This document shows positions 8,998 through 28,946 of a stretch of DNA of 64,000 nt, piece by piece. Within the stretch, counting starts at the first letter, position 1. Each line of letters opens with the position of its first letter. This stretch comes from Candidatus Omnitrophota bacterium (GTDB lineage: Bacteria; Omnitrophota; Omnitrophia; Omnitrophales; Aquincolibacteriaceae): positions 116,871 through 180,870 of the forward strand of contig JBDRCT010000031.1 in the NCBI GenBank assembly GCA_043821445.1, written 5' to 3'. Position numbers and translations under genes: made by a program. The notes under the pieces were generated by a model that was given only the letters and a program-made list of their open reading frames with translations, was not told where the DNA came from and did no database searches.

Positions 8998-10686
8998 ATG
9001 CGTTGGACCCAAACCCTGATCCCCAGTCTCAGAAATATTCCCAAGGATGCCGAAGCCGTCAGCCATCAGCTTGCGCTCCGGGCCGGCCTCATCCGCCAAC
9101 TTTCCTCGGGGGTTTACAGTTACTTGCCGCTGGGTTTCCGTGTCCTTTCCAAGATCATCAAGATCATTCGCGAGGAGATGAACCGGGCCGGGGCTTCGGA
9201 AGTGCTGATGCCCGCTCTTCACCCGGCCGAGATCTGGAAAAAATCCGGCCGCTATGAAACGCTGGGGGACGACAAATTCGCTTTCAAGAACCGTGCGGGA
9301 CATGAGTTCGTGCTGGGACCGACGCATGAGGAGGTCATCACCGATCTTGTGGGCACCAATATCAAATCCTTCCGCGATCTCCCGCTCAATCTCTTTCAGA
9401 TCCAGAATAAATTCCGCGATGAGGCCCGTCCGCGTTTTGGCGTGATCCGCACCAAGGAATTCATCATGAAGGACGCTTACAGCTTTGATGCCGATGAAAA
9501 AGGCCTGGATGCGAACTATCAGAAAATGTTCGGGGCCTATCAGCGGATCTTCACGCGTTGCGGTCTCAAATTCCAGGTCGTGAATGCGGATACGGGCATG
9601 ATGGGCGGCAAGATGAGTCAGGAATTCATGGTGATCTGCCCGTACGGGGAAGACCGTGTCGCGAGCTCCGAGGGCGGCTATCTTGCAAGTCAAGACATTG
9701 CTTCCCGAGGCAATCCCCACTTAAAAACCCCCGTCCCCAAGATCCCAAGACCCGAGCTTTTCGACACGCCGAATCTTCGCACCATCGAAGAGATCTCGCA
9801 CCGTTACAAAGTACCGCCTTCAAACATGATCAAGACGCTTATTTTTATAGCGGATGAAAAGCCAGTCGCGGCACTCGTTACGGGGGACAGCGAAGTCAAT
9901 GAAGGCAAGCTCCGGAAATTGACCGGGGCCAAAGAGCTTCGCCAGGCGGACGGGCACGAGATCTTAGGGGCCACGGGCGCGCCGGTTGGATTTGCGGGTC
10001 CTGTGGGTCTTAAGATCCCGGTTTATGCAGACTGGGATGTTCTCGGACTGGCGGATGCGGTGACGGGCGGGAACCAGAAAGACAAGCATATGAAGGGAGT
10101 GACGATCGGCCGCGATTTTACGGCCACGGTCGCGGGCGACATCCGTTTCGTAAAGGACGGTGATCTCGCTCCGGACGGCAAAAGCAAACTGGCTCTTACG
10201 ACCAGCATGGAGGTCGGCCATGTTTTCAAGCTCGGGACCCGGTATTCGGAATCGATCGGCGCCCATTTCCTGGATGAAAAAGGCGAGCGTAAGCCCGCGA
10301 TCATGGGCTGTTACGGGATCGGTGTGAATCGCATTCTCGCGGCCACGATCGAACAGCATCACGATCTGAAAGGTATCCAGTGGCCCGAGGCCATCGCGCC
10401 GTTCGCGGTGGAGATCATCACGGTCAATCACTCTGATGATAAAGTCCGCGTTGCCGCCGAAAAGATCTATGAGGAGCTCACCCAGGCCGGTCAGGATGTC
10501 CTTTTTGACGACCGGGACGAACGCGCCGGCGTGAAATTCAATGACGCGGACCTGGTCGGTATTCCTACGCAGGTCGTGATCGGCGAACGAAGCCTGAAAG
10601 AGGGCAAGGTCGAGGTCAAGGACCGGCGGACCGGCCAAACCGAACTTGTGCCCATCGATACCATTGTTTCTCGCCTCGATCGGTAA
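8998..10686 (+). CDS. proS: Proline--tRNA ligase (bacterial type with editing domain)
   Basis: Class II aaRS motifs (FRDE..RPRFG, GCYGIG) and a C-terminal anticodon-binding domain. 562 aa. Confidence 0.92.
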   Translation: MRWTQTLIPSLRNIPKDAEAVSHQLALRAGLIRQLSSGVYSYLPLGFRVLSKIIKIIREEMNRAGASEVLMPALHPAEIWKKSGRYETLGDDKFAFKNRAGHEFVLGPTHEEVITDLVGTNIKSFRDLPLNLFQIQNKFRDEARPRFGVIRTKEFIMKDAYSFDADEKGLDANYQKMFGAYQRIFTRCGLKFQVVNADTGMMGGKMSQEFMVICPYGEDRVASSEGGYLASQDIASRGNPHLKTPVPKIPRPELFDTPNLRTIEEISHRYKVPPSNMIKTLIFIADEKPVAALVTGDSEVNEGKLRKLTGAKELRQADGHEILGATGAPVGFAGPVGLKIPVYADWDVLGLADAVTGGNQKDKHMKGVTIGRDFTATVAGDIRFVKDGDLAPDGKSKLALTTSMEVGHVFKLGTRYSESIGAHFLDEKGERKPAIMGCYGIGVNRILAATIEQHHDLKGIQWPEAIAPFAVEIITVNHSDDKVRVAAEKIYEELTQAGQDVLFDDRDERAGVKFNDADLVGIPTQVVIGERSLKEGKVEVKDRRTGQTELVPIDTIVSRLDR

Positions 10687-10693
10687 GTATTAA

Positions 10694-10729
10694 AGTGTCA
10701 ACGTATCAAAGTATCAAGGGTTTGACACT
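10694..10729 (+). promoter_or_regulatory. Palindrome AGTGTCAA-N20-TTGACACT upstream of dinB, a candidate operator (possible SOS/LexA-type box)
   Basis: Exact 8-bp inverted arms lie 27 nt upstream of the dinB ATG. Tandem GTATCAA repeats sit in the spacer. dinB is classically LexA-regulated. Confidence 0.25.
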
Positions 10730-10755
10730 CTGATACCCTGATGCTCTGACACTTT

Positions 10756-11835
10756 ATGTGCTGGTCTAAGCAATTCATCCACATCGACATGGACGCGTTT
10801 TTTGCGGCGGTGGAGCAGCGTGACCGCCCGGAACTCAAAGGCCAGCCCGTGATCGTGGGCGGGAACCCGCAAAGCCGGAGCGTCGTGAGCACCTGTTCTT
10901 ATGAGGCCAGAAAATTCGGCATTCACTCCGCCATGCCGACCGCTCAAGCAAAACGTCTTTGCCCCCACGGCGTTTTCCTCTATCCCGATTTTGAAAAATA
11001 CAGCGCTGCTTCCAGATCCATTATGTCGATCTTTCACACCTACACGTCTCGGGTGGAACAGGTATCGCTGGATGAAGCCTACCTCGATGTCACCGAGAAC
11101 AAACTCAAGCTCGAAGATCCCGTGAAGCTTGCAACGCTGATCAAACAGCACATTTTTGCCGTGACGAAGCTCACCGCATCCGCCGGCGTAGCGCCCGCCA
11201 TGTTCCTGGCGAAGATCGCCTCTGATATGAAAAAACCGGACGGCCTGACGGTGGTCGTTCCGGACAAGGTCCTGGAATTCCTGAAAGATCTTCCGGTCCG
11301 GAAGATCCCGGGGGTCGGCCCTCGCACCGAAGAGATCCTTCACGGCATGACACTCCGGACGTGCGGGGATATCTGGGGCGTGCAGCCGCAAGATCTCACG
11401 GTGAAATTGGGGAAATGGGGACTGGAACTTTTCCATAAGGCGCGGGGAGAGGAGAACCGGGAAGTGAATCCTCATTGGGAGCGGACACAGTTGAGCGCCG
11501 AGGAAACGTTCCCGAAGGACATAACGGACCTGCCACGGCTTAAACAAAAGCTTGCGCAGCTCGCGGAGCATGTTTTTTATGATCTGAAGCAGGAAGGGCG
11601 CTTTGGAAGGACCGTCGTGTTCAAGGTGAAATACCATGATTTTGAGCAGATCACGCGATCCAAAACGCTTACCGCACCGCCCCAGGATTGGCATGTTCTT
11701 CACGAGATCGCCTGCGATCTTTTGAAGAAAAAAACCCTTGCCGGAAGAAAGTCCATCCGTTTGCTAGGGCTCGGCATGAGCGGGCTAGGCGTCAAAAACG
11801 AGTTCCCGGTTTCGACACAGGGAGAACTGTTTTGA
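10756..11835 (+). CDS. dinB: DNA polymerase IV (Y-family)
   Basis: HIDMDAFFAAVEQRD catalytic motif, SIDEAYLDVT, and a KIPGVGP helix-hairpin-helix. Confidence 0.92.
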   Translation: MCWSKQFIHIDMDAFFAAVEQRDRPELKGQPVIVGGNPQSRSVVSTCSYEARKFGIHSAMPTAQAKRLCPHGVFLYPDFEKYSAASRSIMSIFHTYTSRVEQVSLDEAYLDVTENKLKLEDPVKLATLIKQHIFAVTKLTASAGVAPAMFLAKIASDMKKPDGLTVVVPDKVLEFLKDLPVRKIPGVGPRTEEILHGMTLRTCGDIWGVQPQDLTVKLGKWGLELFHKARGEENREVNPHWERTQLSAEETFPKDITDLPRLKQKLAQLAEHVFYDLKQEGRFGRTVVFKVKYHDFEQITRSKTLTAPPQDWHVLHEIACDLLKKKTLAGRKSIRLLGLGMSGLGVKNEFPVSTQGELF

Positions 11836-12008
11836 AAAATTTCGGGCAATTCCTCGTTCGCCTTCCAGAAGACAACAGGAAGGAATGCCGGAAGGGTTTC
11901 GAAGAGGACTCGAAATTTTTGGAATTTAATTTCGACCTTCAATGGAAAAAAAGTATAGTAAACTATACGCATGGTTCAACCGTTCCCAATCTTTAAGCGA
12001 GAGATCAC

Positions 12009-13085
12009 ATGAATCTTCCCGTCCTCATACCTGCTTATAATCCGACAAAGATCTTGTCGGAATTGGTGCAGGCCCTTATCCGGCAGGGCTTTCAAAATAT
12101 CGTGGTCGTCGATGATGGAAGCGAGTCCGAATGTGCTTTTGTGTTCAGGGAAATAGAACAATGTCCGGAATGCACCGTATTGCGGCATGCCGTCAATCTT
12201 GGGAAAGGGGCGGCCTTAAAGACCGGTTTGAATCATATCTATTGTTCGTTCCCGGATCGGGCCGGGGCCATTACCCTTGATGCGGACGGCCAGCATTTGA
12301 TCGGTGACGTTCTCCGAGTGGAAGGTGCTTTAATGCTGCATCCTGAGAAATTGATCGTGGGAGCGAGGAAGTTCGATCAAGGCGTGCCTCTCCGAAGCAG
12401 GGTCGGGAATTTCATCACCAAAAATCTATTTTGCCTCTTGCTCGGGAAACGGCTGATGGACACACAAAGCGGATTGCGCGGGATCCCGATGGACTTCATC
12501 CCGCAACTTTTAAAGATCGGTTCGAATAGCTACGAGTTCGAGCTCGACATGCTTTTGGCATGCAAATATGCCGGCCGTCCCATCTTCGAGGAAGTCATAC
12601 AAACGGTGTATCTGGAGGGGAACAAGTCCTCTCACTTTAATCCCCTGATCGACTCGATGAAGATCTACTTCGCGCTCTTCCGGTTCGCATTGGCATCGCT
12701 CCTTGCGGCTTTGATCGACAACGTGATATTTTTTTTGGCATACGGCTCGAGTTTGAACATTGCCACAAGCCAGATCACGGGACGCGTGTTAAGCGCGACC
12801 TGCAATTATTTATTGGTCAAGAAGGCCGTTTTTTATTCTAAAAAACCTGTCGCGAAGACGCTCCCTGAATATTTTTTGCTCGTTTGTATTTCGGGGGCCG
12901 TCTCCTATTTCATGATCAAGACCATCACGGCTTATTTTCCGGTCCCGGTGATCGCGGCAAAGATCTTTTCCGAGACGGTCATTTTTTTGGCGAATTTCAC
13001 GATCCAGCGTGATTTTATATTTACCCAGGCCGCTCAAAGCAAAAGTGACCGGTTCAAATCTGAGGTCGACACTCAGCATGCATGA
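12009..13085 (+). CDS. GT2 family glycosyltransferase (polyprenyl-phosphate sugar synthase-like) fused to a C-terminal GtrA-like 4-TM domain
   Basis: N-terminal GT-A fold (VLIPAYNPTK...VVVDDGS...DADGQH, with the DxD motif). The C-terminal ~120 aa is hydrophobic with GtrA-like topology. Confidence 0.8.
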   Translation: MNLPVLIPAYNPTKILSELVQALIRQGFQNIVVVDDGSESECAFVFREIEQCPECTVLRHAVNLGKGAALKTGLNHIYCSFPDRAGAITLDADGQHLIGDVLRVEGALMLHPEKLIVGARKFDQGVPLRSRVGNFITKNLFCLLLGKRLMDTQSGLRGIPMDFIPQLLKIGSNSYEFELDMLLACKYAGRPIFEEVIQTVYLEGNKSSHFNPLIDSMKIYFALFRFALASLLAALIDNVIFFLAYGSSLNIATSQITGRVLSATCNYLLVKKAVFYSKKPVAKTLPEYFLLVCISGAVSYFMIKTITAYFPVPVIAAKIFSETVIFLANFTIQRDFIFTQAAQSKSDRFKSEVDTQHA

Positions 13086-14550
13086 GGAGACAAAGGAAAC
13101 GCTCAAAAAAACGGGCCTAAAGGCCTTTTTGCCTGGCAGTGAAATATTCCTGATCAATCCCTACATTACGAGTGCTGAGCGTTACGGGAAGGATATCGGC
13201 GATATGGGGGGGCATCAGATGCCTCTCGGAATCTACTATTTGGCGGCCCGTCTTTTACGGGATGGCAAGAAGGTAGAAGTGATCGACGCCGAGTCGCTCA
13301 GGATGCCCCATGATGAAGTGATTTTTTTTCTTAAAAAAGCTTCTCCCAAGATCATCGGCATCACTTCCACGAGCGTGGCATTTCGCAATGCCCGCTCTCT
13401 GGCGCAAATGATCCGCAAGGAGCTTCCCGGCATCGTCATCATTATCGGGGGACCCCATATGACTGCAATGCCCGATGCCACGATGCAATGCGGGGCTTTT
13501 GATTATGGGGTGGTCAGGGAAGGTGAGGCGGCTTTTTCCAAGCTTGTCAGATTTATTTTGGATCACGAGGGTTCTCTCGAAGGCATCCCCAATCTGTACT
13601 ATTTTGAGCATGCAACACTCCGGAGCAATTCCGAAGCTCCACCCATCCAAGACCTCGATGTCATCCCTTTTCCGGCAAGACAACTTTGCCGGGATCTCTC
13701 TTTATACAAACCCCCCGTGGGTGCTTTCCGTCTTCTGCCCGTGGTCAGCATGATCACCAGCCGGGGATGCCCCTATGAATGTATCTTTTGTGACAATAAT
13801 ACATTCGGACGCAGGACGCGCTTTCACTCCGCGGAGTATGTGGCGGCCGAGATCAAGGAATTGGTTCAAAAATATCATGCCAGGGAAATCGCCTTTTTGG
13901 ACGACACTTTCGTCTTGGATAAAAATAGATTGCGCCGGATCTTTAAAATATTGGACAAAGACAACTTTCATTTGAAGTGGACTTGTATGACGAGGGTCAA
14001 CAATCTGGATTTCGAACTTCTCAAGTTCATGAGGGATCATGGCTGTTGGCAGATCCGGATCGGGATCGAAAGCGGCAATCAGGGAGTGCTTGATTTTATC
14101 AAAAAGGGGATCACCCTGGGGCAAGTGAGGGATGTGGCGGGCTGGTGTAAGGAACTTAAAGTATGCGTCTCGGGATTTTTTATGATCGGGCACCACATCG
14201 ATACGCCCAAGACCATTCAAGAAACCATCGAATTGGCGGTGAAGCTGCCCTTGACCGATGTGATCGCGACCCTCCATACGCCGATTCCGGGGACTGAGTC
14301 CTACAAGCGGGCCAAAGAGTACGGGACTTATGAGGAGGGGGACTGGACCGCGCTCAATTATTGGACGCCCTGCTTTGTCCCTAAGGGCTTGACCCAAGCC
14401 TACATGCTCGCCAAACAGTCCGAACTTTATCGAAGATTTTATCTTCGCCCGGGTGTTTTGTTGCGCCAAGTAGGGAAGATCCGGTCGCTCGCGATCCTGC
14501 GGAGTTTTTTAAGAAGCGCATTTCTGGGTCTGATGTTCACCAAAAAATAA
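13078..14550 (+). CDS. B12-binding domain radical SAM protein (paralog 1)
   Basis: N-terminal cobalamin-binding-like Rossmann region, then ITSRGCPYECIFCDN (CxxxCxxC). The ATG at 13078 overlaps the upstream stop. The ORF track begins at 13009. Confidence 0.85.
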   Translation: MHEETKETLKKTGLKAFLPGSEIFLINPYITSAERYGKDIGDMGGHQMPLGIYYLAARLLRDGKKVEVIDAESLRMPHDEVIFFLKKASPKIIGITSTSVAFRNARSLAQMIRKELPGIVIIIGGPHMTAMPDATMQCGAFDYGVVREGEAAFSKLVRFILDHEGSLEGIPNLYYFEHATLRSNSEAPPIQDLDVIPFPARQLCRDLSLYKPPVGAFRLLPVVSMITSRGCPYECIFCDNNTFGRRTRFHSAEYVAAEIKELVQKYHAREIAFLDDTFVLDKNRLRRIFKILDKDNFHLKWTCMTRVNNLDFELLKFMRDHGCWQIRIGIESGNQGVLDFIKKGITLGQVRDVAGWCKELKVCVSGFFMIGHHIDTPKTIQETIELAVKLPLTDVIATLHTPIPGTESYKRAKEYGTYEEGDWTALNYWTPCFVPKGLTQAYMLAKQSELYRRFYLRPGVLLRQVGKIRSLAILRSFLRSAFLGLMFTKK

Positions 14551-14576
14551 TTCTACCGGTATGTTTTTTCACCCAG

Positions 14577-14905
14577 GATTGGCACGTTCTTCACGAGCTC
14601 GCCTGCGATCTTTTAAAGAAAAAACCCCTCGCCGGAAGAAAGCCCATCCGTTTGTTGGGGCTCGGCATGAGCGGGCTAGGCGCCAAAAACGAGCTCTCGG
14701 TTTCGACGCAAGGGGAACTGTTCTAACAAATTTTATTCAAAATGTTGGAATTTAATTTCAGCCTTCAACAGAAAAAAAGTATAGTAAACTATGCGCATGG
14801 CTCAGCCATTTCCATTCTTTAAGCGAAAGATCCTATGAATCCTTCTGTCCTCATACGTGCTTATAATCCGACAAAGATCCCGGCAGAGTTGGTGCGATCC
14901 TCTAT
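14577..14905 (+). repeat. Degenerate direct duplicate of the dinB 3' end, the downstream spacer and the GT2 5' end (copy of ~11688-12075)
   Basis: 14577-14726 matches 11688-11835 (ggcatgttcttcacgag..tcgcctgcgatctttt...gggctcggcatgagcgggctaggcg...ggagaactgtt) with scattered mismatches. 14764-14905 matches 11940-12075, including the GT2 start ATGAATC. The fragment then diverges and is non-coding. Confidence 0.85.
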
Positions 14906-15010
14906 CCGACGGAAGACCGTCGAATTATTTGTCAGCCATTTTAAATTCTTTGGGTTTCAAAACGAAAAGTTGTCGCAGCCAAGACCGGCTATGAAAAAGG
15001 ATGGGAGCTA

Positions 15011-16465
15011 ATGCGAATCGCTTTTATCAACCCGCCCTATCTGCATATCTACGGAAAAATTGCAACCGGCAAGCACTGTTCTTTTCCGCTAGGCTTAGGA
15101 TATATGGCCTCTTATGTTCGTGAGCATGGACATACTCCTGCGATTTTTGATATCGAAGCGATGCCCTATCCTTTTGCTGAAACATGGCAGCAAATACTCC
15201 GTTTTAAACCTGATCTTCTCGCGATCACCTCCGTTACCGCAAATTTTACCCAGGCAAAGTTCTTAGCCGAAAAGGCTAAAACTGAGATAGGCTGCCTTGT
15301 CATTATGGGGGGACCTCATGTTGCGGCGCTGCCGGAGGCCACTCTTCAGGCGGTGACCGGACTGGATGCAGTCATTACCGGGGAGGGAGAAGAACCATTG
15401 CGAATTCTGGCGGATCAATTCGATGCGACCGGTAAGGTCGACTTCGCTTCTGTCCCAAGCACGTGTTTCATCGCTCATGGCAAATTTCAACGGTCAGCCC
15501 GGCTGAGTTTGATAGAGAATCTCGATTGCATTCCCTATCCGGCCAGAGATCTTGTGGACATGTCATGGTATAGTTTGCCGCCTCATTTTCAACGCGGGAA
15601 AAAATCCGCCACTATTCTTTCTAGTCGCGGCTGTCCCTCTAAGTGCACTTTTTGCGGCAATCTTATTCATGGAAGAAATTTCCGTTTCAACAGTCCCGAT
15701 TATTTCGTATCTGAGCTTCAAATGCTTCGAGATAAATATGGCATACGGCACTTCCATGTTGTCGATGACTGCTTTTCAGCGGATCCGGAGCGGGTCCAGG
15801 CCATTTGCCGATTGATTCTTGATAGAAAGCTGACCGATATCACCTGGTTCATTTTTGGCCGGGCGGACACGCTTCAAGATGAAAAATTGATAACTAGCAT
15901 GCGTCGCGCCGGATGTGTTTATATTCTATTGGGAGTGGAAAGCGGTTCCGAGCACGTATTGGAAAAAATGCGCAAAGAGACGTCTCTTGATACCGTGAGA
16001 ACATGTTGCAAGCTTCTGCGCAAACATCGAATAGCCTACTTCAACTCTTTTATGATCGGGAATGTCGGGGAAACGGAAGAGGATGTCATGAAGAGCATCG
16101 CCTTTGCAAAGGAATTGAAATCTGTTATGGCTGGGTTCAGCATTATGACGCCGTTCCCGGGAACCCACATATTTAATAAGTTCTACAGCGATCTTGCGAA
16201 TAAGGATACCCATTGGGACAACTTCACTTCTGTTGCATCGAAAATCGCTTTCACTGTAAAACATACTTCCTTGAACAATTCTGATATTGAACGTTTAACG
16301 GCACTGGCATACAAAAAATTTTATTGCGACCTGTCCCAAATATTGAGACTTCTAAGTTTTATCAATAGCCCCAGAACATTCATAAGATACATAGGGGGCG
16401 GATTAGGGGTCTTGCGGTATTATCTTCAGTTGAAACGTCAATCGAAAAGCGCAAATCCTGGTTAG
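15011..16465 (+). CDS. B12-binding domain radical SAM protein (paralog 2)
   Basis: ILSSRGCPSKCTFCGN cluster motif. The N-terminal B12-binding-like domain is colinear with paralogs 1 and 3. Confidence 0.85.
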   Translation: MRIAFINPPYLHIYGKIATGKHCSFPLGLGYMASYVREHGHTPAIFDIEAMPYPFAETWQQILRFKPDLLAITSVTANFTQAKFLAEKAKTEIGCLVIMGGPHVAALPEATLQAVTGLDAVITGEGEEPLRILADQFDATGKVDFASVPSTCFIAHGKFQRSARLSLIENLDCIPYPARDLVDMSWYSLPPHFQRGKKSATILSSRGCPSKCTFCGNLIHGRNFRFNSPDYFVSELQMLRDKYGIRHFHVVDDCFSADPERVQAICRLILDRKLTDITWFIFGRADTLQDEKLITSMRRAGCVYILLGVESGSEHVLEKMRKETSLDTVRTCCKLLRKHRIAYFNSFMIGNVGETEEDVMKSIAFAKELKSVMAGFSIMTPFPGTHIFNKFYSDLANKDTHWDNFTSVASKIAFTVKHTSLNNSDIERLTALAYKKFYCDLSQILRLLSFINSPRTFIRYIGGGLGVLRYYLQLKRQSKSANPG

Positions 16466-16493
16466 CCATTTATCCAATCGATAAAGACCCGTT

Positions 16494-17396
16494 ATGAAAT
16501 TTCAAAAACAACAGCAATTATGTCCGGTGTGCGGTTCTGAAGGCTTTGATGTGGTTCTTTCTCCTTGGGCGGAAGAGGCCGACCCCGCTCAGTTGTATGG
16601 CGCGGCATCAGGGATGCCCGGAACGCAACAACTTGTGAAATGCTTGGCGTGCGGCATGATCTATGAAAACCCGCGTTATGATGCGAACGTCATTATTCAG
16701 GGATATACAGCATCGCAAGAGGCGGAACATGATAGCCAGTACCCCATGCGTGTTCGCAGTTTTTTTAAAACACTTCAAAAGCACATGGGAAAAATTCCTT
16801 CAAAAGGATCCAAAGTGTTGGATATTGGAACTGCGGGCGGTGCTTTTCTCGATGCAGCCAAGCAATTCGGATATAACGCCTATGGTATGGAGCCCTCAGC
16901 GGACTTGGTGAAACGCGGCCGCGCGCGTGGATTACAAGTAGAACAGGGGACGATTGAAAAACATAATTTCCTTCCCGGCTCTTTTGACATGGTTTGCCTG
17001 TGGGATGTTATTGAGCATTTGCCCGATCCAAAATCGGCGCTCATCGAGATTAGAAAATTATTGAAACCCAATGGCATTTTACTAGTCAATTTTCCTGATA
17101 TAGGGACTTTGCAAGCCAGGCTAGCTGGGAAGCGGTTCTGGTGGCTTCTGTCCGTTCATCTGCATCATTTCACACGCAAGTCCATGGCCGATATTTTTAA
17201 GCGAACCGGGTTTGAAGCTTTTCATTTCCAGCGCTATTGGCAAATTCTAGAGTTTGGCTATCTGGAAAAAATGGCAGCCCGTTACAAAATACCGTTCGCG
17301 GAGTTGATAGCTAACTTGACCCCAGGATCCATCCAAAGGATCCCGATCCCGTATTACGCGAGTCAAACAACAGCCCTTGCACGGATTTCAAAATGA
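16494..17396 (+). CDS. Class I SAM-dependent methyltransferase with N-terminal Zn-ribbon (sugar C-methyltransferase-like architecture)
   Basis: N-terminal CPVCGS...CLACGM zinc ribbon. VLDIGTAGGAF motif I and DMVCLWDVIEHLPDP motif. The architecture resembles NDP-sugar C-methyltransferases. Confidence 0.75.
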   Translation: MKFQKQQQLCPVCGSEGFDVVLSPWAEEADPAQLYGAASGMPGTQQLVKCLACGMIYENPRYDANVIIQGYTASQEAEHDSQYPMRVRSFFKTLQKHMGKIPSKGSKVLDIGTAGGAFLDAAKQFGYNAYGMEPSADLVKRGRARGLQVEQGTIEKHNFLPGSFDMVCLWDVIEHLPDPKSALIEIRKLLKPNGILLVNFPDIGTLQARLAGKRFWWLLSVHLHHFTRKSMADIFKRTGFEAFHFQRYWQILEFGYLEKMAARYKIPFAELIANLTPGSIQRIPIPYYASQTTALARISK

Positions 17397-18802
17397 CCAC
17401 TTACATTCTTGGGGCGGGGCCGACTGGTTTGGCGGTTGCGGACGGCTTGATCGATGTTAGCGCGGGCGATTTCGTGGTTTTGGAACAAGGCGCTAAATTG
17501 GGGGGGCAGGCCCGAACTGTTCGATGGGAAGGGGTGGGTCATCACGATCTTGGACCGCACAAGATTTTTTCTCTTAATAAACATTTAACCCACCGGGTCG
17601 AGGCTCTTCTCCCTGGATCTGACTGGTTAACGAGAGACAAAGTTAGCAGTATTTTTATGAGGGGACATTATTTGCCGTATCCCCCATCTCCATTCTCCCT
17701 TGCCGGTGTTTTTGGACTAGCGGCATTTCTGAAGATGGTTGCCGGTTATGGATTTGCGCGCATGGGTAGTTTGTTCAGTTCGCGCAAGTCCGCAACATTT
17801 GCGGAAGATCTGGTCACCCGCTTGGGGAGGCCGCTTTATGAGATTTTGTTTAAACCCATTGCCGAAAAATTATGGGGCGAGCCTAAGAGCTTGGATGTAA
17901 AATTGTCCAGAGGAAGAGTCCAAACCCCATCGCTTTTGGAGCTGCTTGGCCGGCTATTGAAGATCAAAAAAAACAGCGAATTTGAAGCATTGACGTTCCG
18001 CTATCCCAAGGGAGGATTGGGACGATTGTGGGAGGCTATTCAGACAAAGGCGCAAGGTCGCGGAAGGTTTCTTCTGGAACACACTGTCACAGGGCTTGGT
18101 GTGGAGGCTAACCGTGTCCGGCAGATCAGATTCTCTTCGAAAGAGATCAATGGAGTGATCGATTTAGCTCCGGAGGATCAGGTGGTTTCGACTTTGCCGC
18201 TGGCGCAAACGGCGCAGTTTTTATCTCAGGTATTGCCGCCCCATTTTCCGAAGTTGGTAGAAAATGTTATTGTCTTGAACGATCTGCTGCTAGTGTTCCT
18301 GCACATCGATAAGCCCAGTTTATTGCGTGAGTCTTGGCTGTTTATCCCGGATCCAGAAATCGCGTTCCATCGCTTGAGCGAACAAGAATCTTTTGATCCG
18401 GCGATGACCCCCAACGGTAGTATTGTGTGTTGCGAAATGATGAGCAGCGCTTGCCGCCCACTGGCTGGAAAAACTGATGAAGAGTTGTCTGCGCTTGCTC
18501 TTGAGGGGCTCGCGGCCATGGGTTACGGTGATTTTAAAGTGTTGGGCAAGAGAGTTCTTAGGTTGCCAAAGAGTTACCCGGTATTTCGCACCGGTTTTGA
18601 GGTCGGTTTGTCCGAACTTATCAACGCTCTAGATCAGTTCAAAAATTTTCATTCCATTGGAAGGCAAGGTGCATTTAATTACATAGGGACCCTTGATGCT
18701 ATGGACATTGGATACGGATTTGCTGACTGGCTCGCGAATGGTAGAAGTCGTCCTTGGCAGGACGAGCGCAAGAGAACCAATCACTATCCAGTGCTGGATT
18801 GA
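17393..18802 (+). CDS. FAD/NAD(P)-binding oxidoreductase (amine-oxidase/PPOX-like fold)
   Basis: N-terminal ILGAGPTGLAVA dinucleotide-binding motif. 469 aa. Start overlaps the methyltransferase stop. Confidence 0.75.
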   Translation: MTTYILGAGPTGLAVADGLIDVSAGDFVVLEQGAKLGGQARTVRWEGVGHHDLGPHKIFSLNKHLTHRVEALLPGSDWLTRDKVSSIFMRGHYLPYPPSPFSLAGVFGLAAFLKMVAGYGFARMGSLFSSRKSATFAEDLVTRLGRPLYEILFKPIAEKLWGEPKSLDVKLSRGRVQTPSLLELLGRLLKIKKNSEFEALTFRYPKGGLGRLWEAIQTKAQGRGRFLLEHTVTGLGVEANRVRQIRFSSKEINGVIDLAPEDQVVSTLPLAQTAQFLSQVLPPHFPKLVENVIVLNDLLLVFLHIDKPSLLRESWLFIPDPEIAFHRLSEQESFDPAMTPNGSIVCCEMMSSACRPLAGKTDEELSALALEGLAAMGYGDFKVLGKRVLRLPKSYPVFRTGFEVGLSELINALDQFKNFHSIGRQGAFNYIGTLDAMDIGYGFADWLANGRSRPWQDERKRTNHYPVLD

Positions 18803-18805
18803 ACC

Positions 18806-20317
18806 ATGCGATTAACGATGATCTCGCCGAGACTGGCTTTTCAAAAAGGAGATTTCCTGGGTTCCGGGGTCCCTTACTGGCCTTTGGAGTTGGCCACGCT
18901 TGCTGCCTACGCACTTCAGACGGGAGATACCGTTGCTTTTGTCGATCAGTTTGGTGCCAATCCGTCTCGACTCGCCGACGCAGGTGATCATTATCTCCAA
19001 GGGGAGCCCATTGATACCCCGGCGTGGCGTGAACGATTGGAGCAGGCGGAGGCATTTGTCTTGTACGCTATCTCCTATATGTCACACGGAGACTTACTTG
19101 TGACAATCCGATGGCTTAAAGATTCATTTCCTGAAAGACCAGTAGCCGTTCTGGAGAATTCTCAAGCAGTCACCGCTTACTCACTGGAGTGCATGGCACC
19201 CTCCTTTTTTGATGCGGGGGCGGATCTGCTGATCTGCGGGGAGCCCTACTTCAACTGGGCCGCGATCAAAAGACAATTAACGGAAAAGGGCCACGATCCA
19301 TCGATAGTTCCTAACGTCATCACGCGAGAATCTCGCGTCTCACCCCGCCGGTTCAATGAAAAACTAGACCGCTATCCAATTCCGGCATGGGATCTCATGA
19401 ATTTAGATGGATATTGGCGATTGCCCTATGCTCATGGTCCCAAAACGCGCAAATTCCTGCCGATCCTCACATCCCGGGGTTGTCCCTATCCTTGCGATTT
19501 TTGTGTTGTGCCTGAGACGAACGACAAACAGTGGCGGGGAAATGATCCCGAACAGGTTGTCGACGAGATGATCGCTCTGCGAGACCAATATGGTGTTCAT
19601 GACTTTCAGGTTGAGGATCTTAATCCTACCGTTCAACCCCATCGTTGGGAAAAAATTTGTGAACTTTTGATCAAGCGCAAAGCCGATATTCGGTTTTATT
19701 TTGTAAGCGGAACAAAAGCTGAAACTGTCCCTGTGGATAAAACAGCTCTGTTCGCAAAAGCCGGTTGCAGGTATCTATCCATCAGCCCGGAATCTGGCAG
19801 CAGCGATCTGATGCAAGTCATGGGGAAGAGATTTGACTATTCCCGGGGTGTCGAATTAATTGCGGCGTGTAAAGCCTGTGGCATTCGGACGCAAGCCTGT
19901 TTTTTGGTAGGGCATCCTAATGAAACGGAAAAAGATCTCGAACTTTCAAACAGCTACCTTTCACGCCTGGTCAAGGCGGGGTTAGATGAGGTCGCCGTTT
20001 TTGTTCTCGCACCCTTTGCAGGAAGTGAGCTCCATAGAAGAAAGAGCATCATTTTGAAAGATCAAAACACTCTCATCAGCTTTTCGCCGAAAGGACGGGC
20101 TGATTACGAAATGTTATCGCGTAGCAGGAGGATGCTTGTGCGAACTTTTCTCATCCAAAAATTAAAATATAACGGGATCGAATTGTGCTTGCAGGGATTG
20201 CGAGCGATTTTGGGTGTCCCAGAAACCAAGGTCGAAAATTTGCCCCGGCGGATGGTCTTTATTTACTGGCAGGTGCTGAAGCTAGCCGTGGCCAAAAAGT
20301 CAGGTCCTCGATCATGA
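18806..20317 (+). CDS. B12-binding domain radical SAM protein (paralog 3)
   Basis: ILTSRGCPYPCDFCVVPE cluster motif. Same domain order as the other two paralogs. Confidence 0.85.
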   Translation: MRLTMISPRLAFQKGDFLGSGVPYWPLELATLAAYALQTGDTVAFVDQFGANPSRLADAGDHYLQGEPIDTPAWRERLEQAEAFVLYAISYMSHGDLLVTIRWLKDSFPERPVAVLENSQAVTAYSLECMAPSFFDAGADLLICGEPYFNWAAIKRQLTEKGHDPSIVPNVITRESRVSPRRFNEKLDRYPIPAWDLMNLDGYWRLPYAHGPKTRKFLPILTSRGCPYPCDFCVVPETNDKQWRGNDPEQVVDEMIALRDQYGVHDFQVEDLNPTVQPHRWEKICELLIKRKADIRFYFVSGTKAETVPVDKTALFAKAGCRYLSISPESGSSDLMQVMGKRFDYSRGVELIAACKACGIRTQACFLVGHPNETEKDLELSNSYLSRLVKAGLDEVAVFVLAPFAGSELHRRKSIILKDQNTLISFSPKGRADYEMLSRSRRMLVRTFLIQKLKYNGIELCLQGLRAILGVPETKVENLPRRMVFIYWQVLKLAVAKKSGPRS

Positions 20318-21024
20318 ACTCACGGCGTGTGTTGATCATCATTCCTTGTTATAACGAGCAAGTGTCGGTTGCGTTGCTTTTGAAGGAAATTGCAGATTGC
20401 CGGCAAGGCTATGAAACGATCGTTATCGATGACGGTTCGCAAGATGCGACCTATCAAACAGCCCGTCAATTTTCACCTGCCGTGAAATTGCCGAGAAATC
20501 TTGGGATCGGGGGCGCAGTGCAAACGGGGATCAAATATGCTCGCAACCAAGGTTTTGATTTTTGCATTCAGCTGGATGGCGACGCCCAACACGATCCTCA
20601 TGAGATCCCGAAGCTTCTGCAGGCTTATCAGGAAATGCCTCACCCGATCATTATAGGCAGCCGCTATTTACAAAAGGATACATTTCGTTCGACTTGGGTG
20701 CGTAGATTCGGCGGAAAGATCATTGCAAAGGTAATGAGCTTATTATTTCCTGGAGGCACTATTACTGACCCCACAAGCGGTATGCGGTTAATGGATCGAA
20801 ATGCGATCGAATTTTTTTCAAAGCGCTATCCCCATGATTTTCCGGAGCCGATCTCTTTAGCATGGGCGCTCCGGGTGGGGTTTACGGTGGGTGAAGTCCA
20901 AGTCAAAATGCGTATGCGTACGCATGGAAAAAGTTCGATCGTGGGTCTGAAGCCCATAAGCTATATGTTCCGGGTCCTGGGGTATGTTATTCTAGCCCGG
21001 TTTTTGCGCATTTCAGCATTTTAA
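20314..21024 (+). CDS. GT2 family glycosyltransferase (polyprenyl-phosphate sugar synthase-like, ArnC/DPM1-like)
   Basis: VLIIIPCYNEQ...IVIDDGSQD...LDGDAQH motifs. The ATG at 20314 overlaps the rSAM3 stop. The ORF track starts further upstream at 20185. Confidence 0.82.
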   Translation: MNSRRVLIIIPCYNEQVSVALLLKEIADCRQGYETIVIDDGSQDATYQTARQFSPAVKLPRNLGIGGAVQTGIKYARNQGFDFCIQLDGDAQHDPHEIPKLLQAYQEMPHPIIIGSRYLQKDTFRSTWVRRFGGKIIAKVMSLLFPGGTITDPTSGMRLMDRNAIEFFSKRYPHDFPEPISLAWALRVGFTVGEVQVKMRMRTHGKSSIVGLKPISYMFRVLGYVILARFLRISAF

Positions 21025-21039
21025 CAGGAGGTTGTTCCT

Positions 21040-21423
21040 ATGTATGACGTTTCTATCAAAACCATTATTGCTATCACCCTTTTTGCCTGCGGGTATATGT
21101 TTTTTATTATTCGCAAGACAGCCCGAGGCCAACTGGACCTCTATGACCTGATCATGTTGTCCGCAGTGGCCATTATTCCGAGCGCGTTCGCATTGTTCCC
21201 CAAGGTCGGGGTTTTTTTAGCGACCAGTACGGGGGTGCTGTTTCCTTTTGTTGTGTTATTCGGGATCTTGCTTGTGATTCTCTTTATTTTTATACATCGC
21301 CTGACTGTCAAGATCCACCGATTGGAATCGGATAGCCGGTTGCTATTGCAGGAATTAAGTTTGCTCAAGCAAACCGTAGACAACAAACAAAGCCGCATTG
21401 CTCCGGCAGTTTCAGCTCAATAA
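21040..21423 (+). CDS. Small 3-4 TM membrane protein (DUF2304-like partner of GT2)
   Basis: 127 aa, very hydrophobic, with a C-terminal amphipathic tail. Lies immediately downstream of the GT2 gene, a pairing common for polyprenyl-P-sugar synthases. Confidence 0.6.
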   Translation: MYDVSIKTIIAITLFACGYMFFIIRKTARGQLDLYDLIMLSAVAIIPSAFALFPKVGVFLATSTGVLFPFVVLFGILLVILFIFIHRLTVKIHRLESDSRLLLQELSLLKQTVDNKQSRIAPAVSAQ

Positions 21424-21524: not shown

Positions 21525-23327
21525 TTAATTTCCCCATAAAGGAGCATGTTCCTTTTTCAATTTCAAATACTCAACCAACACCGCCAAAGCTTTTTCTTTA
21601 TCCCCTTTTTCTTTGTACAGCAGCGCTAAAGCATCGTAGCCCTCTTTTGAAGAAGGAGAGACGGCGATCGCCTTCCGAAAACAAGAAATAGCCTCATCCT
21701 CACGCCCTGTTTCGCGGTAAAGTTCCCCAAGCTGGATATAGTAGAAGGGGTATTGAGGATTATCGTGCGTGGCTTTTTCTAATGATTGAATAGCCCTTGA
21801 GATTTTCCCTTCCTTAATAAAAGAGATGGCTTCATTATAAAAAAACAAACCTTGGGATGATTCCTTCGTTGGTTGTTGTAAGAATAAAACTTCCTGTAGA
21901 TACCGTTTGCTCATTTCAGAATTTCCTAAGGCTGAATACGCATTGCTCATGTTCGCCAGGAGCCGCGGGGTTTGCCGACCTGTTTCCAGCGCTTTTTGAT
22001 AATAAAGGAGAGCGGTTTTTTCATCTTTTCGCTCTTTGGAGTAGGCTTCGCCCAGCAGCATGTAAGAACGGTACTTGAAGGGGGATTTTCTGATATTGTC
22101 ACGCCAGAAGACGAACGGATCTTTCCATAATTCATTCCTGGCATAAGTCATTCCGGATAAAACGACTGCGAGGATCAGAATCGCAGCCAGAAAACCCCTT
22201 GAGGATTTCGTAAGCAACCACAAAAAAGATGCAACGAAAAGAGAGAAGCCGAACATCGGGAGGTATAAGCGATGTTCGAAGATGACATCGGGATAGGGGA
22301 TCAGAGAGGACTCAACGCTTAAGGTCAGGAAGAACCATAAGATCCCGAAGGAGAGAAGACGGTATTTTTTAAAAAAGAGGAAACTTAGGACAAGAAGACT
22401 CACAAGTAACGAAAATGCTGCCCACGCGTCAGGATCTCCCCAAGCTGCCGACATACGGTAATCATAATCAAGGCATTGACCTGCTGGAAAAAAAAGAAGC
22501 CGCAAATAGGTCCTCATGACGCGGAATTCGGTCAGGAGGAAATCCCAGCGGGAAATGTGGGTGTTCCATGTGGGCAATAGATTCATGGCGCCGCCGATGC
22601 GAACAAGATTGTCCTTGTAAATGATCCAGGTTAACGGGACGACCAAAAGGAAGGCGGCGAAAGGGAGCCATCGGAGGACCTTTTTTGCGAACGTTTCTTT
22701 TTCGGAAAGCGGGAAAAAAAACCATTCCACAAGCAGGATTGCAAAAGGAAGAGTAAAACCGATCTCTTTAGTGAACATGGCTGCCAGCATGGAAAGAAAG
22801 ACGGCCGGGTAATACCGGGCGTTTTCAATTCGTGCCTTTAAATACATCCAGAGCGTTGCCAGGTAAAAAAGAGTGGCTAATGAGGTCATTCGCTGGACGA
22901 CGTATGTGACGGCCTGGGTCTGGATCGGATGCGTTACGAATAAAAGAGCGGTCCCGAGTGCGAACAGATCCCGGTGCGAGGCGGACAGAGTATCCTTGAG
23001 TGCAGGGGTGCTCAGCAGCAGTCGAGTGGTCCCGAAAACGGTGAGCGATACCAGAAGGTGGATCAGCAAATTGATGAGATGAAAACCCCAAGGCGCTAGG
23101 CCCGTCAAAACATATTGCAGGGCAAAGCTTAGGTTCGCGACAAAACGGGTAGGAAAACTTTCCCAGATCCTTCCCAGGTTGATAGGAGGGCGCAAGGAGA
23201 GATTTTCAACGATACGCATCTGATCGTCAAAATAAAATGGGACATCAAAAGTGTTAGAATAGGCCAGGACCCCGAAAAGCAGGATCAGGAGCAAACAGGT
23301 TCGCGAGGATAACGGTTTTGAATTCAT
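21525..23327 (-). CDS. PMT/TMTC-like (GT-C fold) polytopic membrane glycosyltransferase-like protein with C-terminal TPR repeats, paralog 1 (type A)
   Basis: 600 aa. Its ~11-TM N-terminal domain carries a YFDD motif after TM1. The C-terminal ~200 aa consists of TPR repeats (AYSALGN..., YYQKALE...). Confidence 0.7.
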   Translation of the reverse strand: MNSKPLSSRTCLLLILLFGVLAYSNTFDVPFYFDDQMRIVENLSLRPPINLGRIWESFPTRFVANLSFALQYVLTGLAPWGFHLINLLIHLLVSLTVFGTTRLLLSTPALKDTLSASHRDLFALGTALLFVTHPIQTQAVTYVVQRMTSLATLFYLATLWMYLKARIENARYYPAVFLSMLAAMFTKEIGFTLPFAILLVEWFFFPLSEKETFAKKVLRWLPFAAFLLVVPLTWIIYKDNLVRIGGAMNLLPTWNTHISRWDFLLTEFRVMRTYLRLLFFPAGQCLDYDYRMSAAWGDPDAWAAFSLLVSLLVLSFLFFKKYRLLSFGILWFFLTLSVESSLIPYPDVIFEHRLYLPMFGFSLFVASFLWLLTKSSRGFLAAILILAVVLSGMTYARNELWKDPFVFWRDNIRKSPFKYRSYMLLGEAYSKERKDEKTALLYYQKALETGRQTPRLLANMSNAYSALGNSEMSKRYLQEVLFLQQPTKESSQGLFFYNEAISFIKEGKISRAIQSLEKATHDNPQYPFYYIQLGELYRETGREDEAISCFRKAIAVSPSSKEGYDALALLYKEKGDKEKALAVLVEYLKLKKEHAPLWGN

Positions 23328-23333
23328 AGGGCT

Positions 23334-25124
23334 TTAATTTCCGAACAAGGGTTTGTGCTTCTTCTTGAATTTCAGGTATTCCACCAAGACATCCACAGCT
23401 TTCTGCGGGTCCCCCTTTTCCTTATAAAAAAAAGCCAAAGCGTTATAGCCCTCCTGGGATAAAGGGGCCAGCTCGATGGCTTTCCGGAAAGAAGACACAG
23501 CCTCGTCCTCCTGCTGCATTTTGCGATAGGCCTCGCCGAGTTGGATGTACGTCCAAGGATTCTGAGGGCTTATTTGTATGTCTTTCTTCAGCATCGTTAC
23601 AGCTTCCGCATATTCACCCTTGTTTATCAGAGTGAGCGCCTGGTTATCATAAAAAGAAAGTGTTTTTCTTAACACTGAAAATGATAAAGCTATATTTTTA
23701 AAGTAAACGCTTTTCTCACGATCACCAAGTTGAAAATAAATTTCAGACAGGTTTAAAAAAACCAGGGGAGTGGTAAATCCCAAGTCCAACGCTTTTTGAA
23801 AACAAAATGCCGCGGCTTTGTAATCCTTCACTTCTCTTCTGTAGGCATCACCCAGGCCGGCATAACAAATCCCCTTGTGAGGTGTTTTTTTTACGACGTC
23901 TTGGGCTAGTGAAAGCTTGCTTTTCCACACCTCGTTCCGGGCGTAAGTCATACCTGAAAAAACAACAGTGATAACCAACGAAACAGCGGTGAACCATTTG
24001 ACGGACCTTACTAGTGTCCAAAGAAGCGATGTCAAGAAGAGGACAAATCCGAACGTGGGGAGATAAAGTCGGTGTTCGAATATCAGATCAGGAACAGGGA
24101 TGAAGGAAGATTCGACGCTGAGAGTCAGGAAGAACCATAAAACGCCGAAAGTTAAGAGCCGGTTCTTTTTAAAGCATGCGAGTGACAGAAGCAAAACACT
24201 GAAAAGCAGTGAAAAAGCCACCCACGTATCCGGATCTCCCCAGCCTTTTGAAAGACGATAATCATAGATAAGGCATTGATCGACCGGAAAAAAAAGAAGC
24301 CGCAAGTAGGTCCTTTCGACGCGGAACTGAGTTAAGAAATAATCCCACCGGGAGATATTCTTGGCCATAGATGGAAGGATGTTCATGGATCCACTATCGC
24401 GCGTGAAGATATGAATATTGGTCAGATAAAGTAATGGGATGATCAAAAGAAATGCCGCAAAAGGGAGCCAGCGGATCAATTTTTTGCCGAGAGGATCTTC
24501 GGCCGAGGGCGGAAAGAAGAACAATTCCGAGAGCAGGATCGCGAAGGGGAGGGTGAAGCTGATCTCTTTGGTCAACATGGCTGCCAACATGAGGAGAAAA
24601 ACAACCCGGTAGTAACGGGCGTCCTCCAGCCGTGCCTTAAGGTACATCCAGAGCGTAGCCAAATAAAAAAGGGCCGCCATCGAAGTCAAACGCTGCACAA
24701 TATAAGTGACCGCCTGGGTTTGCACAGGATGCGTTAAAAAAAGAAGTGCGGCGACCACGGCAAACAGATTCTGTTGTGCGGGAGGCACCCAATTTTTCAT
24801 GGCAGGGGTGTTGAGGATCGATAGAGTAAGATTGAACACGACGCACGAAGCAAGGATATGTATTAGCAGATTGACAACGTGAAAGCCCCATGTTGCAAAG
24901 CCCGTCAGGTAAATGTTGAAAGCGAAGCTGAGATTTACAATAAAGCGAAGCGGATGGTAGATCCAGAGTTTTCCGAGATCCAGGGGCTGAAGGGAACGGT
25001 TTTCCAGGATGTTGGGGATATCATCAAATTGAAAAGCTCCGGTCAAACTATTAGAGTAGGCCGCGATCCCGAAGAGCAGGATGAGGAGCAGACAGGTTCG
25101 TGTGGATAACGGTTTTAGATCCAT
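23334..25124 (-). CDS. PMT/TMTC-like GT-C membrane protein with TPR domain, paralog 2 (type B)
   Basis: 596 aa with a QFDD motif. The N-terminal ~230 aa is nearly identical to paralog 4. The C-terminus is a TPR domain. Confidence 0.7.
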   Translation of the reverse strand: MDLKPLSTRTCLLLILLFGIAAYSNSLTGAFQFDDIPNILENRSLQPLDLGKLWIYHPLRFIVNLSFAFNIYLTGFATWGFHVVNLLIHILASCVVFNLTLSILNTPAMKNWVPPAQQNLFAVVAALLFLTHPVQTQAVTYIVQRLTSMAALFYLATLWMYLKARLEDARYYRVVFLLMLAAMLTKEISFTLPFAILLSELFFFPPSAEDPLGKKLIRWLPFAAFLLIIPLLYLTNIHIFTRDSGSMNILPSMAKNISRWDYFLTQFRVERTYLRLLFFPVDQCLIYDYRLSKGWGDPDTWVAFSLLFSVLLLSLACFKKNRLLTFGVLWFFLTLSVESSFIPVPDLIFEHRLYLPTFGFVLFLTSLLWTLVRSVKWFTAVSLVITVVFSGMTYARNEVWKSKLSLAQDVVKKTPHKGICYAGLGDAYRREVKDYKAAAFCFQKALDLGFTTPLVFLNLSEIYFQLGDREKSVYFKNIALSFSVLRKTLSFYDNQALTLINKGEYAEAVTMLKKDIQISPQNPWTYIQLGEAYRKMQQEDEAVSSFRKAIELAPLSQEGYNALAFFYKEKGDPQKAVDVLVEYLKFKKKHKPLFGN

Positions 25125-26872: not shown

Positions 26873-26990
26873 AAAAATTTGATTTCAAACTCAATAATTA
26901 ATATAGAAGGATTATTTCTGATCAGTGTACGGTATTTTTTAATGTCCGCTCGAAGTTTTCCGCCATCTGTTTGCACGATTTTAGAATATC

Positions 26991-28781: not shown

Positions 28782-28810
28782 AGAGCCTCAAAATTGAGCG
28801 ATCGCGGCGC

Positions 28811-28839: not shown

Positions 28840-28946
28840 GTCTTTTGCCGGGGGGATTTTTTAAAAATCGGATGGAGCATTCCGGAAGGTGAAAAGCCGG
28901 GTCGTCATCCACCCTCCGCTATCCGTTCTCCCGGTTTTGAAATACT

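Follow-up and report, generated by a model that had tools for sequence, protein, structure and literature searches.

A repeated dinB 3' end in an Omnitrophota genome as a likely relic of glycan-island assembly

Why does the end of a DNA polymerase gene occur twice at one locus, once where it completes the gene and once 2.9 kb downstream? The question is raised by a 64,000-nucleotide (nt) stretch of contig JBDRCT010000031.1 (hereafter the window), which comes from a metagenome-assembled genome (MAG) of Candidatus Omnitrophota. The gene order in the window is rseP, proS, dinB, GT2a (a family 2 glycosyltransferase), rSAM1 (a radical S-adenosylmethionine (SAM) enzyme), the second copy of the dinB end (copy B), a run of genes from rSAM2 to DUF2304, six PMT_2/TPR genes, leuC, leuD and a type IV pilus-like cluster. 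An earlier note, made from the letters of this DNA, had described a segmental duplication of about 330 bp (dinB 3' end, spacer and GT2 start) that brackets the GT2-rSAM1 pair, and had explained it by tandem duplication. Our analysis confirms the repeat and favours a different origin. With a probability of roughly 0.58, copy B is the displaced relic of an earlier left-hand junction of a glycan island, two diverged versions of that junction having been joined by additive recombination.

A repeat search over 10.5-16.5 kb found two direct, collinear blocks, all parts of which lie on the forward strand. Block 1 pairs 11681-11842 with 14572-14733 (162 nt, 90% identity) and block 2 pairs 11913-12082 with 14739-14908 (170 nt, 83% identity); in a five-sequence alignment the homology of block 2 could be traced to about 12087/14913. 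Comparison of each copy with the whole window by blastn gave similarity far beyond chance (E = 4e-58 for block 1 and 3e-46 for block 2), and neither a third copy nor a relic near leuC was found in the 64 kb. The repeat therefore stands as first described, with coordinates shifted by only about 5-25 nt. The blocks have different offsets (2891 and 2826), as the segment between them is 70 nt long in copy A (11843-11912) and 5 nt in copy B (14734-14738). Between the copies, the longest stretches of perfect identity are 25, 22 and 22 nt, amid 10-17% divergence.

In copy A, block 1 is the working dinB 3' end, comprising the last 52 codons, the stop TGA (11833-11835) and 7 nt more, and block 2 (11913-12087) consists of the gene-proximal spacer, with the putative promoter and 5' untranslated region, and the first ~26 codons of GT2a. 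From the stop of rSAM1 to the start of copy B there is a junction of 21 nt (14551-14571), which has only chance-level matches to dinB, the window or any of the 97 loci compared, and the join there is inferred to be illegitimate. Copy B starts with the displaced dinB 3' end (dinB', 14572-14733, stop TAA at 14724-14726), which is without a start codon of its own. Its block 2 (14739-14913) holds the gene-proximal spacer, with a conserved motif at 14771-14794, and a 5' fragment of the GT2 gene (GT2') with its ATG at 14835. An orphan segment of ~80 nt (14914-14993) then separates the end of the GT2' homology from the native upstream and ribosome-binding region of rSAM2; searches for its origin in the window and all 97 loci gave only chance-level matches. 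The copies had been thought to lose their reading frame, and this was mistaken. The dinB' fragment is in frame without an indel over 52 codons and stops at the homologous place (TGA to TAA), GT2' is open from its ATG, and only the GT2 homology stops after about codon 26.

That the repeats bracket the GT2-rSAM1 pair was borne out by the coordinates and by Pfam gene calls, which also upheld the names dinB, GT2 and rSAM. The conserved left anchor of the variable island is dinB (10756-11835, forward strand), a member of the DinB/DNA polymerase IV (Y-family) group in which the IMS catalytic, HHH and IMS_C little-finger domains are all present above the Pfam cut-offs (PF00817, 9.8e-53; PF11798, 8.3e-09; PF11799, 1.3e-25). 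GT2a (12009-13085, forward strand) is an intact bifunctional GT2/GtrA-family fusion (PF00535, PF04138); it is identical to the NCBI Omnitrophota MAG protein P0001, and an exact look-up with the window sequence of GT2a gave no match. The third gene, rSAM1 (13078-14550, forward strand), encodes a B12-binding radical SAM enzyme (PF02310, PF04055). Its longest open reading frame (ORF) starts with GTG at 13009, overlapping GT2a by 77 nt. Both the sequence itself and its alignment with rSAM2 point to the ATG at 13078 as the likely true start; this ATG overlaps the GT2a stop (ATGCATGA), which suggests translational coupling of the two genes.

The substitution patterns of the two copies are informative on the order of events. 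Over 50 comparable codons the dinB tails of A and B differ by 9 synonymous changes in 34.8 sites and 6 non-synonymous changes in 115.2 sites, giving a synonymous divergence (dS) of 0.32, a non-synonymous divergence (dN) of 0.054 and a dN/dS of 0.17. Working orthologue pairs gave dN/dS values of 0.07-0.17, and copies B and A compared with the related locus L016 gave 0.10 and 0.09, respectively. The probability of 6 or fewer non-synonymous changes among 15 was 0.0024 if both branches were neutral, and 0.046 if copy A was constrained and copy B neutral since a duplication. The two tails are equidistant from outgroups (21 vs 19, 30 vs 30 and 35 vs 36 differences of 155), and Tajima-type relative-rate counts of unique changes in A and B were 9/7, 7/7 and 6/7. 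The corresponding counts for the 75 nt of GT2' were 1/11 with L096 as outgroup (p = 0.006), 2/11 with L080 (p = 0.02) and 3/10 with L081, and those for the gene-proximal spacer were 7/8 and 8/6, with no acceleration. It thus appears that dinB' was a working gene end under purifying selection until recently and that the GT2' stub is the older pseudogene. Constraint in the one and acceleration in the other would place the truncation of GT2 before the displacement of the dinB tail, the reverse of the order proposed earlier.

To place the repeat among relatives, 17 related Omnitrophota loci were retrieved, anchored on DinB, and mapped with the window proteins. Orthologues of dinB are 73-92% identical at the amino acid (aa) level in Omnitrophota MAGs and always have rseP-proS upstream; this conserved rseP-proS-dinB block is followed by leuC, by 1-5 PMT/TPR genes or by GT2a-rSAM1. 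In 6 of the 17 loci (L001, L003, L008, L010, L012 and L013) nothing lies between dinB and leuC, and a seventh adjacency of this kind, in the P0242 contig, is known from its gene list only; dinB-leuC is therefore taken as the ancestral adjacency. The other loci have 1-5 PMT/TPR genes in the gap (overall copy number 0-5), and the differing arrangements show the dinB-leuC gap to be a putative recombination hot spot of variable content in this clade. Two metagenome contigs, L081 and L096, carry a dinB tail followed by spacer, GT2a (78-80% identity) and rSAM1 (73%), so the layout of copy A is one natural version of the left end of the island. The six genes from rSAM2 to DUF2304 (module B, 15011-21423, forward strand) recur in the same order in the P0121 contig (93% identity) and in L093 (80%), the first three of them in L092 (83%) before the contig ends, and rSAM2 in L095 (79%). 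In none of the three loci with readable upstream DNA (L092, L093 and L095) is module B preceded by dinB, GT2a or rSAM1. In L093 it follows a GT4 gene within a large polysaccharide cluster, and in L092 an unrelated 500-aa membrane protein; the window and L092 are similar only from 17 nt upstream of the rSAM2 ATG onward. Module B is therefore an independent cassette. The rSAM1 and rSAM2 proteins are 29% identical, and no decayed GT2 or rSAM1 DNA was found downstream of copy B, where the 2.5-kb interior of the A unit matches only one 43-nt family motif.

Displaced dinB tails were also found in other assemblies. Locus L017 (10001-15690) has the order dinB, PMT/TPR, dinB' relic, PMT/TPR, second dinB' relic and leuC, and so has, besides the tail of its own dinB, one that separates the two PMT/TPR genes (13229-13340) and one beside leuC (15411-15565), three in all. 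The relic beside leuC has the ancestral-type last 50 nt found in L002, followed by the ancestral leuC leader, and the working tail and the middle relic share another ending; this difference indicates that incoming DNA brought its own tail there too. The same leuC-side relic is a mosaic, its first 76 nt matching the working tail at 93% identity and the remainder at 74%. The two PMT/TPR genes of L017 have 50% identity overall, and around the 5' ends their DNA is 86% identical. A frameshift near codon 175 seemingly divides the L017 dinB gene into two ORFs (9941-10594 and 10591-11079). In L097, a 556-nt contig from another metagenome study, 113 nt without dinB similarity and an in-frame stop come before a 345-nt dinB tail, and a PMT/TPR gene 3' end comes after it. 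In window-equivalent positions the left boundaries of the displaced tails are 11492 (L097), about 11655 (both L017 relics) and 11681 (window). Boundaries that vary and mark no fixed site argue against an att-type mechanism and for illegitimate joins.

From the repeat, the gene content, the arrangements in relatives and the substitution patterns, all of which are observed, we infer the following order of events and recombination mechanism. The neighbours dinB and leuC would have been separated as the gap became a variable surface-glycan island, one left-end version of which was dinB, spacer, GT2a and rSAM1. In one lineage GT2 would then have been cut after about codon 26 and fused, through the ~80 nt that are foreign to all loci compared, to the separately mobile module B. 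GT2' would have decayed from then on, and the adjoining dinB tail and spacer, as parts of the working arrangement in that lineage, would have stayed under selection. A second version of the junction, consisting of the dinB 3' end, the spacer, an intact GT2a and rSAM1 and originating from a lineage about dS 0.3 away, would later have been joined to the first, with one end homologous (in dinB or proS on the left, or in the PMT array or leuC on the right) and the other illegitimate. The illegitimate join would connect a point 21 nt beyond the end of rSAM1 with one 155 nt short of the old dinB stop codon; integration of a circularised fragment through one crossover would lead to an identical structure. 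At present one dinB tail completes the gene, and the other lies 2.9 kb downstream with its spacer and GT2' stub, where it may still supply the promoter and leader of the cassette. Either of the two blocks may have been the donor and the other the resident.

This reading, a displaced junction relic, is carried by a fragment that looks like the end of a once functional gene (in frame, stop retained, dN/dS 0.17, dS 0.32 and equidistant from outgroups), by a conserved anchor, rseP-proS-dinB, beside a locus of variable content, and by the recurrence of displaced tails with non-fixed junctions in L017 and L097. Several points weigh against it. Neither parental version has been seen entire: no contig has dinB, spacer, GT2' and module B together, the L081 and L096 contigs end inside rSAM1, and the P0121 contig, the closest relative of module B (93%), is seen as gene calls, with 616 gene-free nt upstream of rSAM2. 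Sliding windows over proS-dinB against five relatives show no clear step, identity to L016 drifting from ~93% to ~86% after about 11200. The tests use few sites (15 differences in 155 nt for the dinB tail and 12-13 informative sites in 75 nt for GT2'), and the contrast with a constrained copy A and a neutral copy B reaches only P = 0.046. Moreover, of the sequences compared, the two copies are the nearest to each other (16/155 differences, against 19-21/155 to L016), and they have derived states in common at the beginning of GT2 (ACAAAGATC and TATCCG), which is also expected of an old in-situ duplication. Such a duplication, the explanation of the earlier note, would have placed head to tail a unit that begins 155 nt ahead of the dinB stop and ends 21 nt past rSAM1, the part from GT2 codon ~26 through rSAM1 being later lost or replaced by module B. 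The direct repeats, in the same order and orientation and with an end-of-unit/start-of-unit junction, are as it predicts. However, it requires at least two further events. The dinB' tail would have been useless from the duplication onward, yet its dN/dS of 0.17 shows no relaxation (the numbers being small), and GT2' is the older pseudogene, opposite to the predicted order. Nor are there remains of the unit interior, since rSAM2 is no decayed rSAM1 (29% identity) and module B is independent. The A-B dS of 0.32 is more than half of the distance to a different species-level relative (0.52-0.58), and would make copy B a very old duplicate that nevertheless kept its frame and stop without an indel. 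A segmental direct repeat flanking GT2a-rSAM1 does record how the island was assembled, as had been claimed; that it did so by tandem self-duplication we consider unlikely.

Two other explanations were considered. A recombinase might have integrated elements site-specifically at the dinB 3' end, each bringing a replacement tail, in the manner of the e14 prophage at the 3' end of icd in E. coli K-12, which Hill et al. reportedly described in 1989 and whose insert is said to bring its own last ~50 codons with mostly silent differences. There the original 3' fragment survives as a pseudogene beyond the insert, resembling dinB', and the changes in the replacement tail at dinB are likewise mostly silent. 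Displaced tails in three independent assemblies, with three of four boundaries within ~30 nt (about 11655, about 11655 and 11681), would also suit a preferred site, as would a conserved imperfect palindrome of 34 nt, TTCTTCACGAGATCGC-CT-GCGATCTTTTGAAGAA, 15 nt inside the repeat boundary (11696-11729, and 14587-14620 in copy B). A 46-nt stretch containing it (11690-11735) folds at -16.4 kcal/mol (z = -4.0), and the palindrome is highly conserved among Omnitrophota dinB genes. Its silent sites vary without compensation, however, so that the codons for EIACDL explain it and it is probably their by-product; for this reason, and with the displaced-tail boundaries not fixed, it was rejected as an att core. 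The L097 boundary lies 190 nt off and those of the window and L017 are ~25 nt apart, whereas e14 has its own integrase, a fixed att core and its fragment at the element end. Copy B is internal, 2.9 kb from dinB and 18 kb from leuC, and only the second L017 relic adjoins leuC. A Pfam scan of all ORFs of at least 150 aa from dinB to leuC, and of most others in the window, found no integrase, transposase or other recombinase in the island or its flanks (20.9-21.6 kb holds small ORFs only). The window has no tRNA or tmRNA genes, which excludes tRNA-type integration, and an Rfam search of 11500-15100 at a permissive threshold returned one chance snoRNA match only and no Rfam family in or beside the island. 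Site-specific integration is accordingly given very little weight. An assembly artefact, in which the contig wrongly joins two strain variants, has to be considered as the source is a MAG, the structure is known from the contig alone, and strain variants of the locus coexist in nature. It is also highly improbable, as the longest A/B identical run of 25 nt is too short to mislead the k-mers usual in assembly, no sequence is shared at the junction, the independently assembled P0121 contig has 616 gene-free nt before its 93% identical rSAM2, and similar relics occur in the independent assemblies L017 and L097.

The repeat belongs to a known class of scar, the displaced gene 3' end, and is a new instance of it, in Omnitrophota, at dinB-leuC and with glycan cassettes; it involves no new mechanism. 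O-antigen and capsule loci switch by recombination in conserved flanking genes, and are like the present locus in that relatives exchange a variable glycan island lying between housekeeping genes (here dinB and leuC). In classical switching a clean double crossover substitutes one cargo for another, in contrast to the additive, partly illegitimate event proposed here. Homology-facilitated illegitimate recombination, leaving orphan 3' ends and immunity genes, has been proposed for Rhs and type VI secretion system (T6SS) loci (Kirchberger et al. 2017, PMC5361080, which in turn cites Jackson et al. 2009 for Rhs 'orphan' tips and de Vries & Wackernagel 2002, Prudhomme et al. 2002 and Meier & Wackernagel 2003 for the same recombination). 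As in the Rhs and Vibrio cholerae T6SS arrays of that study, there is a conserved upstream anchor, modules are added and not swapped, the old 3' end is pushed downstream as a relic, and repeated events build arrays by a proposed mechanism that is free of integrase. Unlike those systems, the anchor here is a housekeeping DNA-repair gene, dinB, which borders the island and stands outside the variable system, and the cargo consists of glycan-modification genes and not of toxins or immunity genes; the relic is without an obvious benefit such as that of an orphan immunity gene. This kind of recombination predicts a seamless side in dinB or upstream, an abrupt non-homologous junction at 14551-14572 and a duplicated recipient dinB tail, the last of these if the illegitimate join is located within the anchor. 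In contrast to the experimental cases, the event here is read from sequence alone; a microhomology of 3-10 nt is typical of such joins. Both of the routes considered above, the illegitimate join and circularisation followed by a single crossover, have been documented for linear DNA that enters a cell (Amarir-Bouhram et al. 2011, PMC3240628).

A broader form of this scheme, that the dinB 3' end is a recurrent capture point at which glycan cassettes with their own dinB tail and promoter spacer are stacked without an integrase, appears quite doubtful. If it were true, the dinB-tail hairpin (11696-11729) might favour nearby breaks or joins, and the spacer copies could act as portable promoters that switch on captured blocks.

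The spacers of the two copies differ by the 70-nt palindromic segment found in copy A only (11843-11912, forward strand), which lies directly 3' of the dinB stop with AAATTT on both flanks and corresponds to the gap in copy B. As RNA, a 96-nt stretch containing it (11830-11925) forms a long hairpin (-32.8 kcal/mol, z = -3.1), and the segment resembles a bidirectional terminator or a small element of the repetitive extragenic palindrome (REP) or miniature inverted-repeat transposable element (MITE) type. Only chance-level matches to it were found in the window and the 97 loci. The L096 spacer is long (177 nt), and that of L081 is short (105 nt), copy B-like and without the 70-nt segment. Further downstream the spacer carries the motif GAAAAAAAGTATAGTAAACTATAC (11945-11968, forward strand; 14771-14794 in copy B), an A-tract with a 16-nt palindrome, GTATAGT-AA-ACTATAC. 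Of this motif 22 nt, including the palindrome GTATAGTAAACTATAC, are identical in copies A and B; TATAGTAAACTA is found in L096, and L081 has TGTAGT-AG-ACTACA, in which the palindrome is preserved by a change on both arms. The motif is a candidate promoter or operator in which TATAGT and TAAACT look like -10 elements. A promoter-like match, TCGACC-16-TATAGT, occurs at 11932-11959, in a scan that overall was not above chance (4 found vs 3.7 expected) and, as a combined promoter and terminator scan, found no promoter-like match in copy B.

Immediately before module B, GT2' is part of orf58 (14835-15011, forward strand), an open reading frame of 58 codons of which ~26 are GT2-derived and 32 unrelated, and whose TAA overlaps the rSAM2 ATG (TAATG). 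It has no Pfam match, and it departs (L3P, P4S and P8R) from the N-terminal residues that working GT2a orthologues conserve (MNLPVLIPAYNPT). It is probably a relic and possibly a leader ORF. The latter would fit the idea, compatible with either origin of the repeat, that copy B was kept because it is useful, supplying the GT2 promoter or operator, ribosome-binding site and leader orf58 to module B, with modules A and B co-regulated. In its favour are a gene-proximal spacer that is not accelerated relative to copy A (7/8 and 8/6), the sameness of the 22-nt palindrome block in both copies and in L096 with the both-arm change in L081, an orf58 that has stayed open to its TAATG, the retained GT2 ribosome-binding region, and the absence from copy B of the terminator-like hairpin that follows dinB in copy A. 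Set against these are the chance level of the promoter-like matches and their lack in copy B, a weak terminator-like hairpin at 14907-14922 that straddles the boundary between GT2' and the orphan segment, a TAATG that is native to module B, being found also in L092, the mutated GT2 residues and missing family match of orf58, and the lack of any called gene in the 616 nt upstream of the 93% identical rSAM2 of the P0121 contig. Copy B may thus act as promoter and leader for module B, and we hold that it was kept for this use as a tentative idea only.

The earlier note had further regarded the repeat as a substrate for recombination that could excise the first GT2-rSAM pair. In principle this holds, as copy B has a tail in frame with a stop and a crossover in either block would therefore leave a full-length dinB with a hybrid tail. 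RecA-dependent recombination needs a minimal identical length, and mismatch repair is a barrier to recombination between diverged repeats. With identical runs of 25, 22 and 22 nt in 10-17% divergence, excision should be rare, and strain-level deletion variants without GT2a-rSAM1 may exist.

If the relic reading is right, the locus would hold an ordered, datable record of glycan-island assembly in an uncultivated phylum, in which truncation of a GT2 gene by cassette capture was followed by arrival of a second GT2-rSAM block from a diverged relative. Displaced dinB tails occur in at least three assemblies, and contigs of related genomes may break or vary at dinB-leuC. In annotation, dinB' and orf58 are best treated as relics and not as genes.

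Some further arrangements were seen among the related loci. In the P0002 contig, known from its gene list, GT2a (87% identity) has a TPR fragment and a 99-aa ORF upstream. A metagenome scan with rSAM1 returned relatives at 49-69% only, in which the association of GT2-GtrA, rSAM and PMT genes was seen and the junction was not. These rSAM1 orthologues (L080-L091) are usually beside a GT2-GtrA gene, with PMT/TPR genes near in L082, L085, L088 and L090, and they occur in several unrelated contexts; from these contexts GT2-GtrA, B12-binding rSAM and GT-C/TPR genes appear to form a functional module that recurs. Among the GT2-GtrA homologues, some (~550-580 aa) carry a fused methyltransferase domain. 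Locus L094 was uninformative as its contig starts inside dinB. The P0242 contig was considered as a further displaced tail and rejected, as it has a frameshifted dinB (ORFs of 212 and 101 aa) in a plain dinB-leuC adjacency. Only the last 73 codons of a PMT6-like gene remain beside leuC in L016 (10277-10495), and L013 (4713-6852) is without dinB codons 270-359 and leuC codons 1-53. In some of the lineages of L016, L013 and P0242 dinB may be dispensable.

The cassette to the right of copy B was assigned by Pfam and by its recurrence elsewhere. Its genes, all on the forward strand, are rSAM2 (15011-16465), which is a B12-binding radical SAM gene, a SAM methyltransferase (MT, 16494-17396), a flavin adenine dinucleotide (FAD) amine-oxidase-like gene (17393-18802), rSAM3 (18806-20317), GT2b (about 20314-21024) and DUF2304 (21040-21423). 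The start of GT2b is probably 20314, where an ATGA overlaps rSAM3, and not 20185. The right part of the island (21525-32857, reverse strand) is an array of six PMT_2/TPR paralogues of ~600 aa each, predicted from Pfam to be GT-C-like glycosyltransferases with TPR; TPR was called in 6/6 and weak PMT_2 matches in 2/6. Repeat families D1-D6 link five of these genes (21525-30746) at 60-83% nt identity, and the sixth (30932-32857) is covered by none. A 67-nt intergenic repeat is also present in the array (28801-28867 and 30769-30835). The conserved right anchor is leuC (32927-34342, forward strand; Pfam Aconitase, 1.6e-178). Beyond the island, a cluster resembling type IV pilus or type II secretion systems (35119-46610) encodes PilM-like and PilO-like proteins, a secretin, an ATPase and a platform protein, followed by three pilin-like genes. 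The third of these has a weak, sub-threshold match to ComP_DUS, which is no demonstration of competence. All three carry N-terminal methylation motifs, and two of them (45119-45544 and 45590-46024) are near-identical tandem duplicates.

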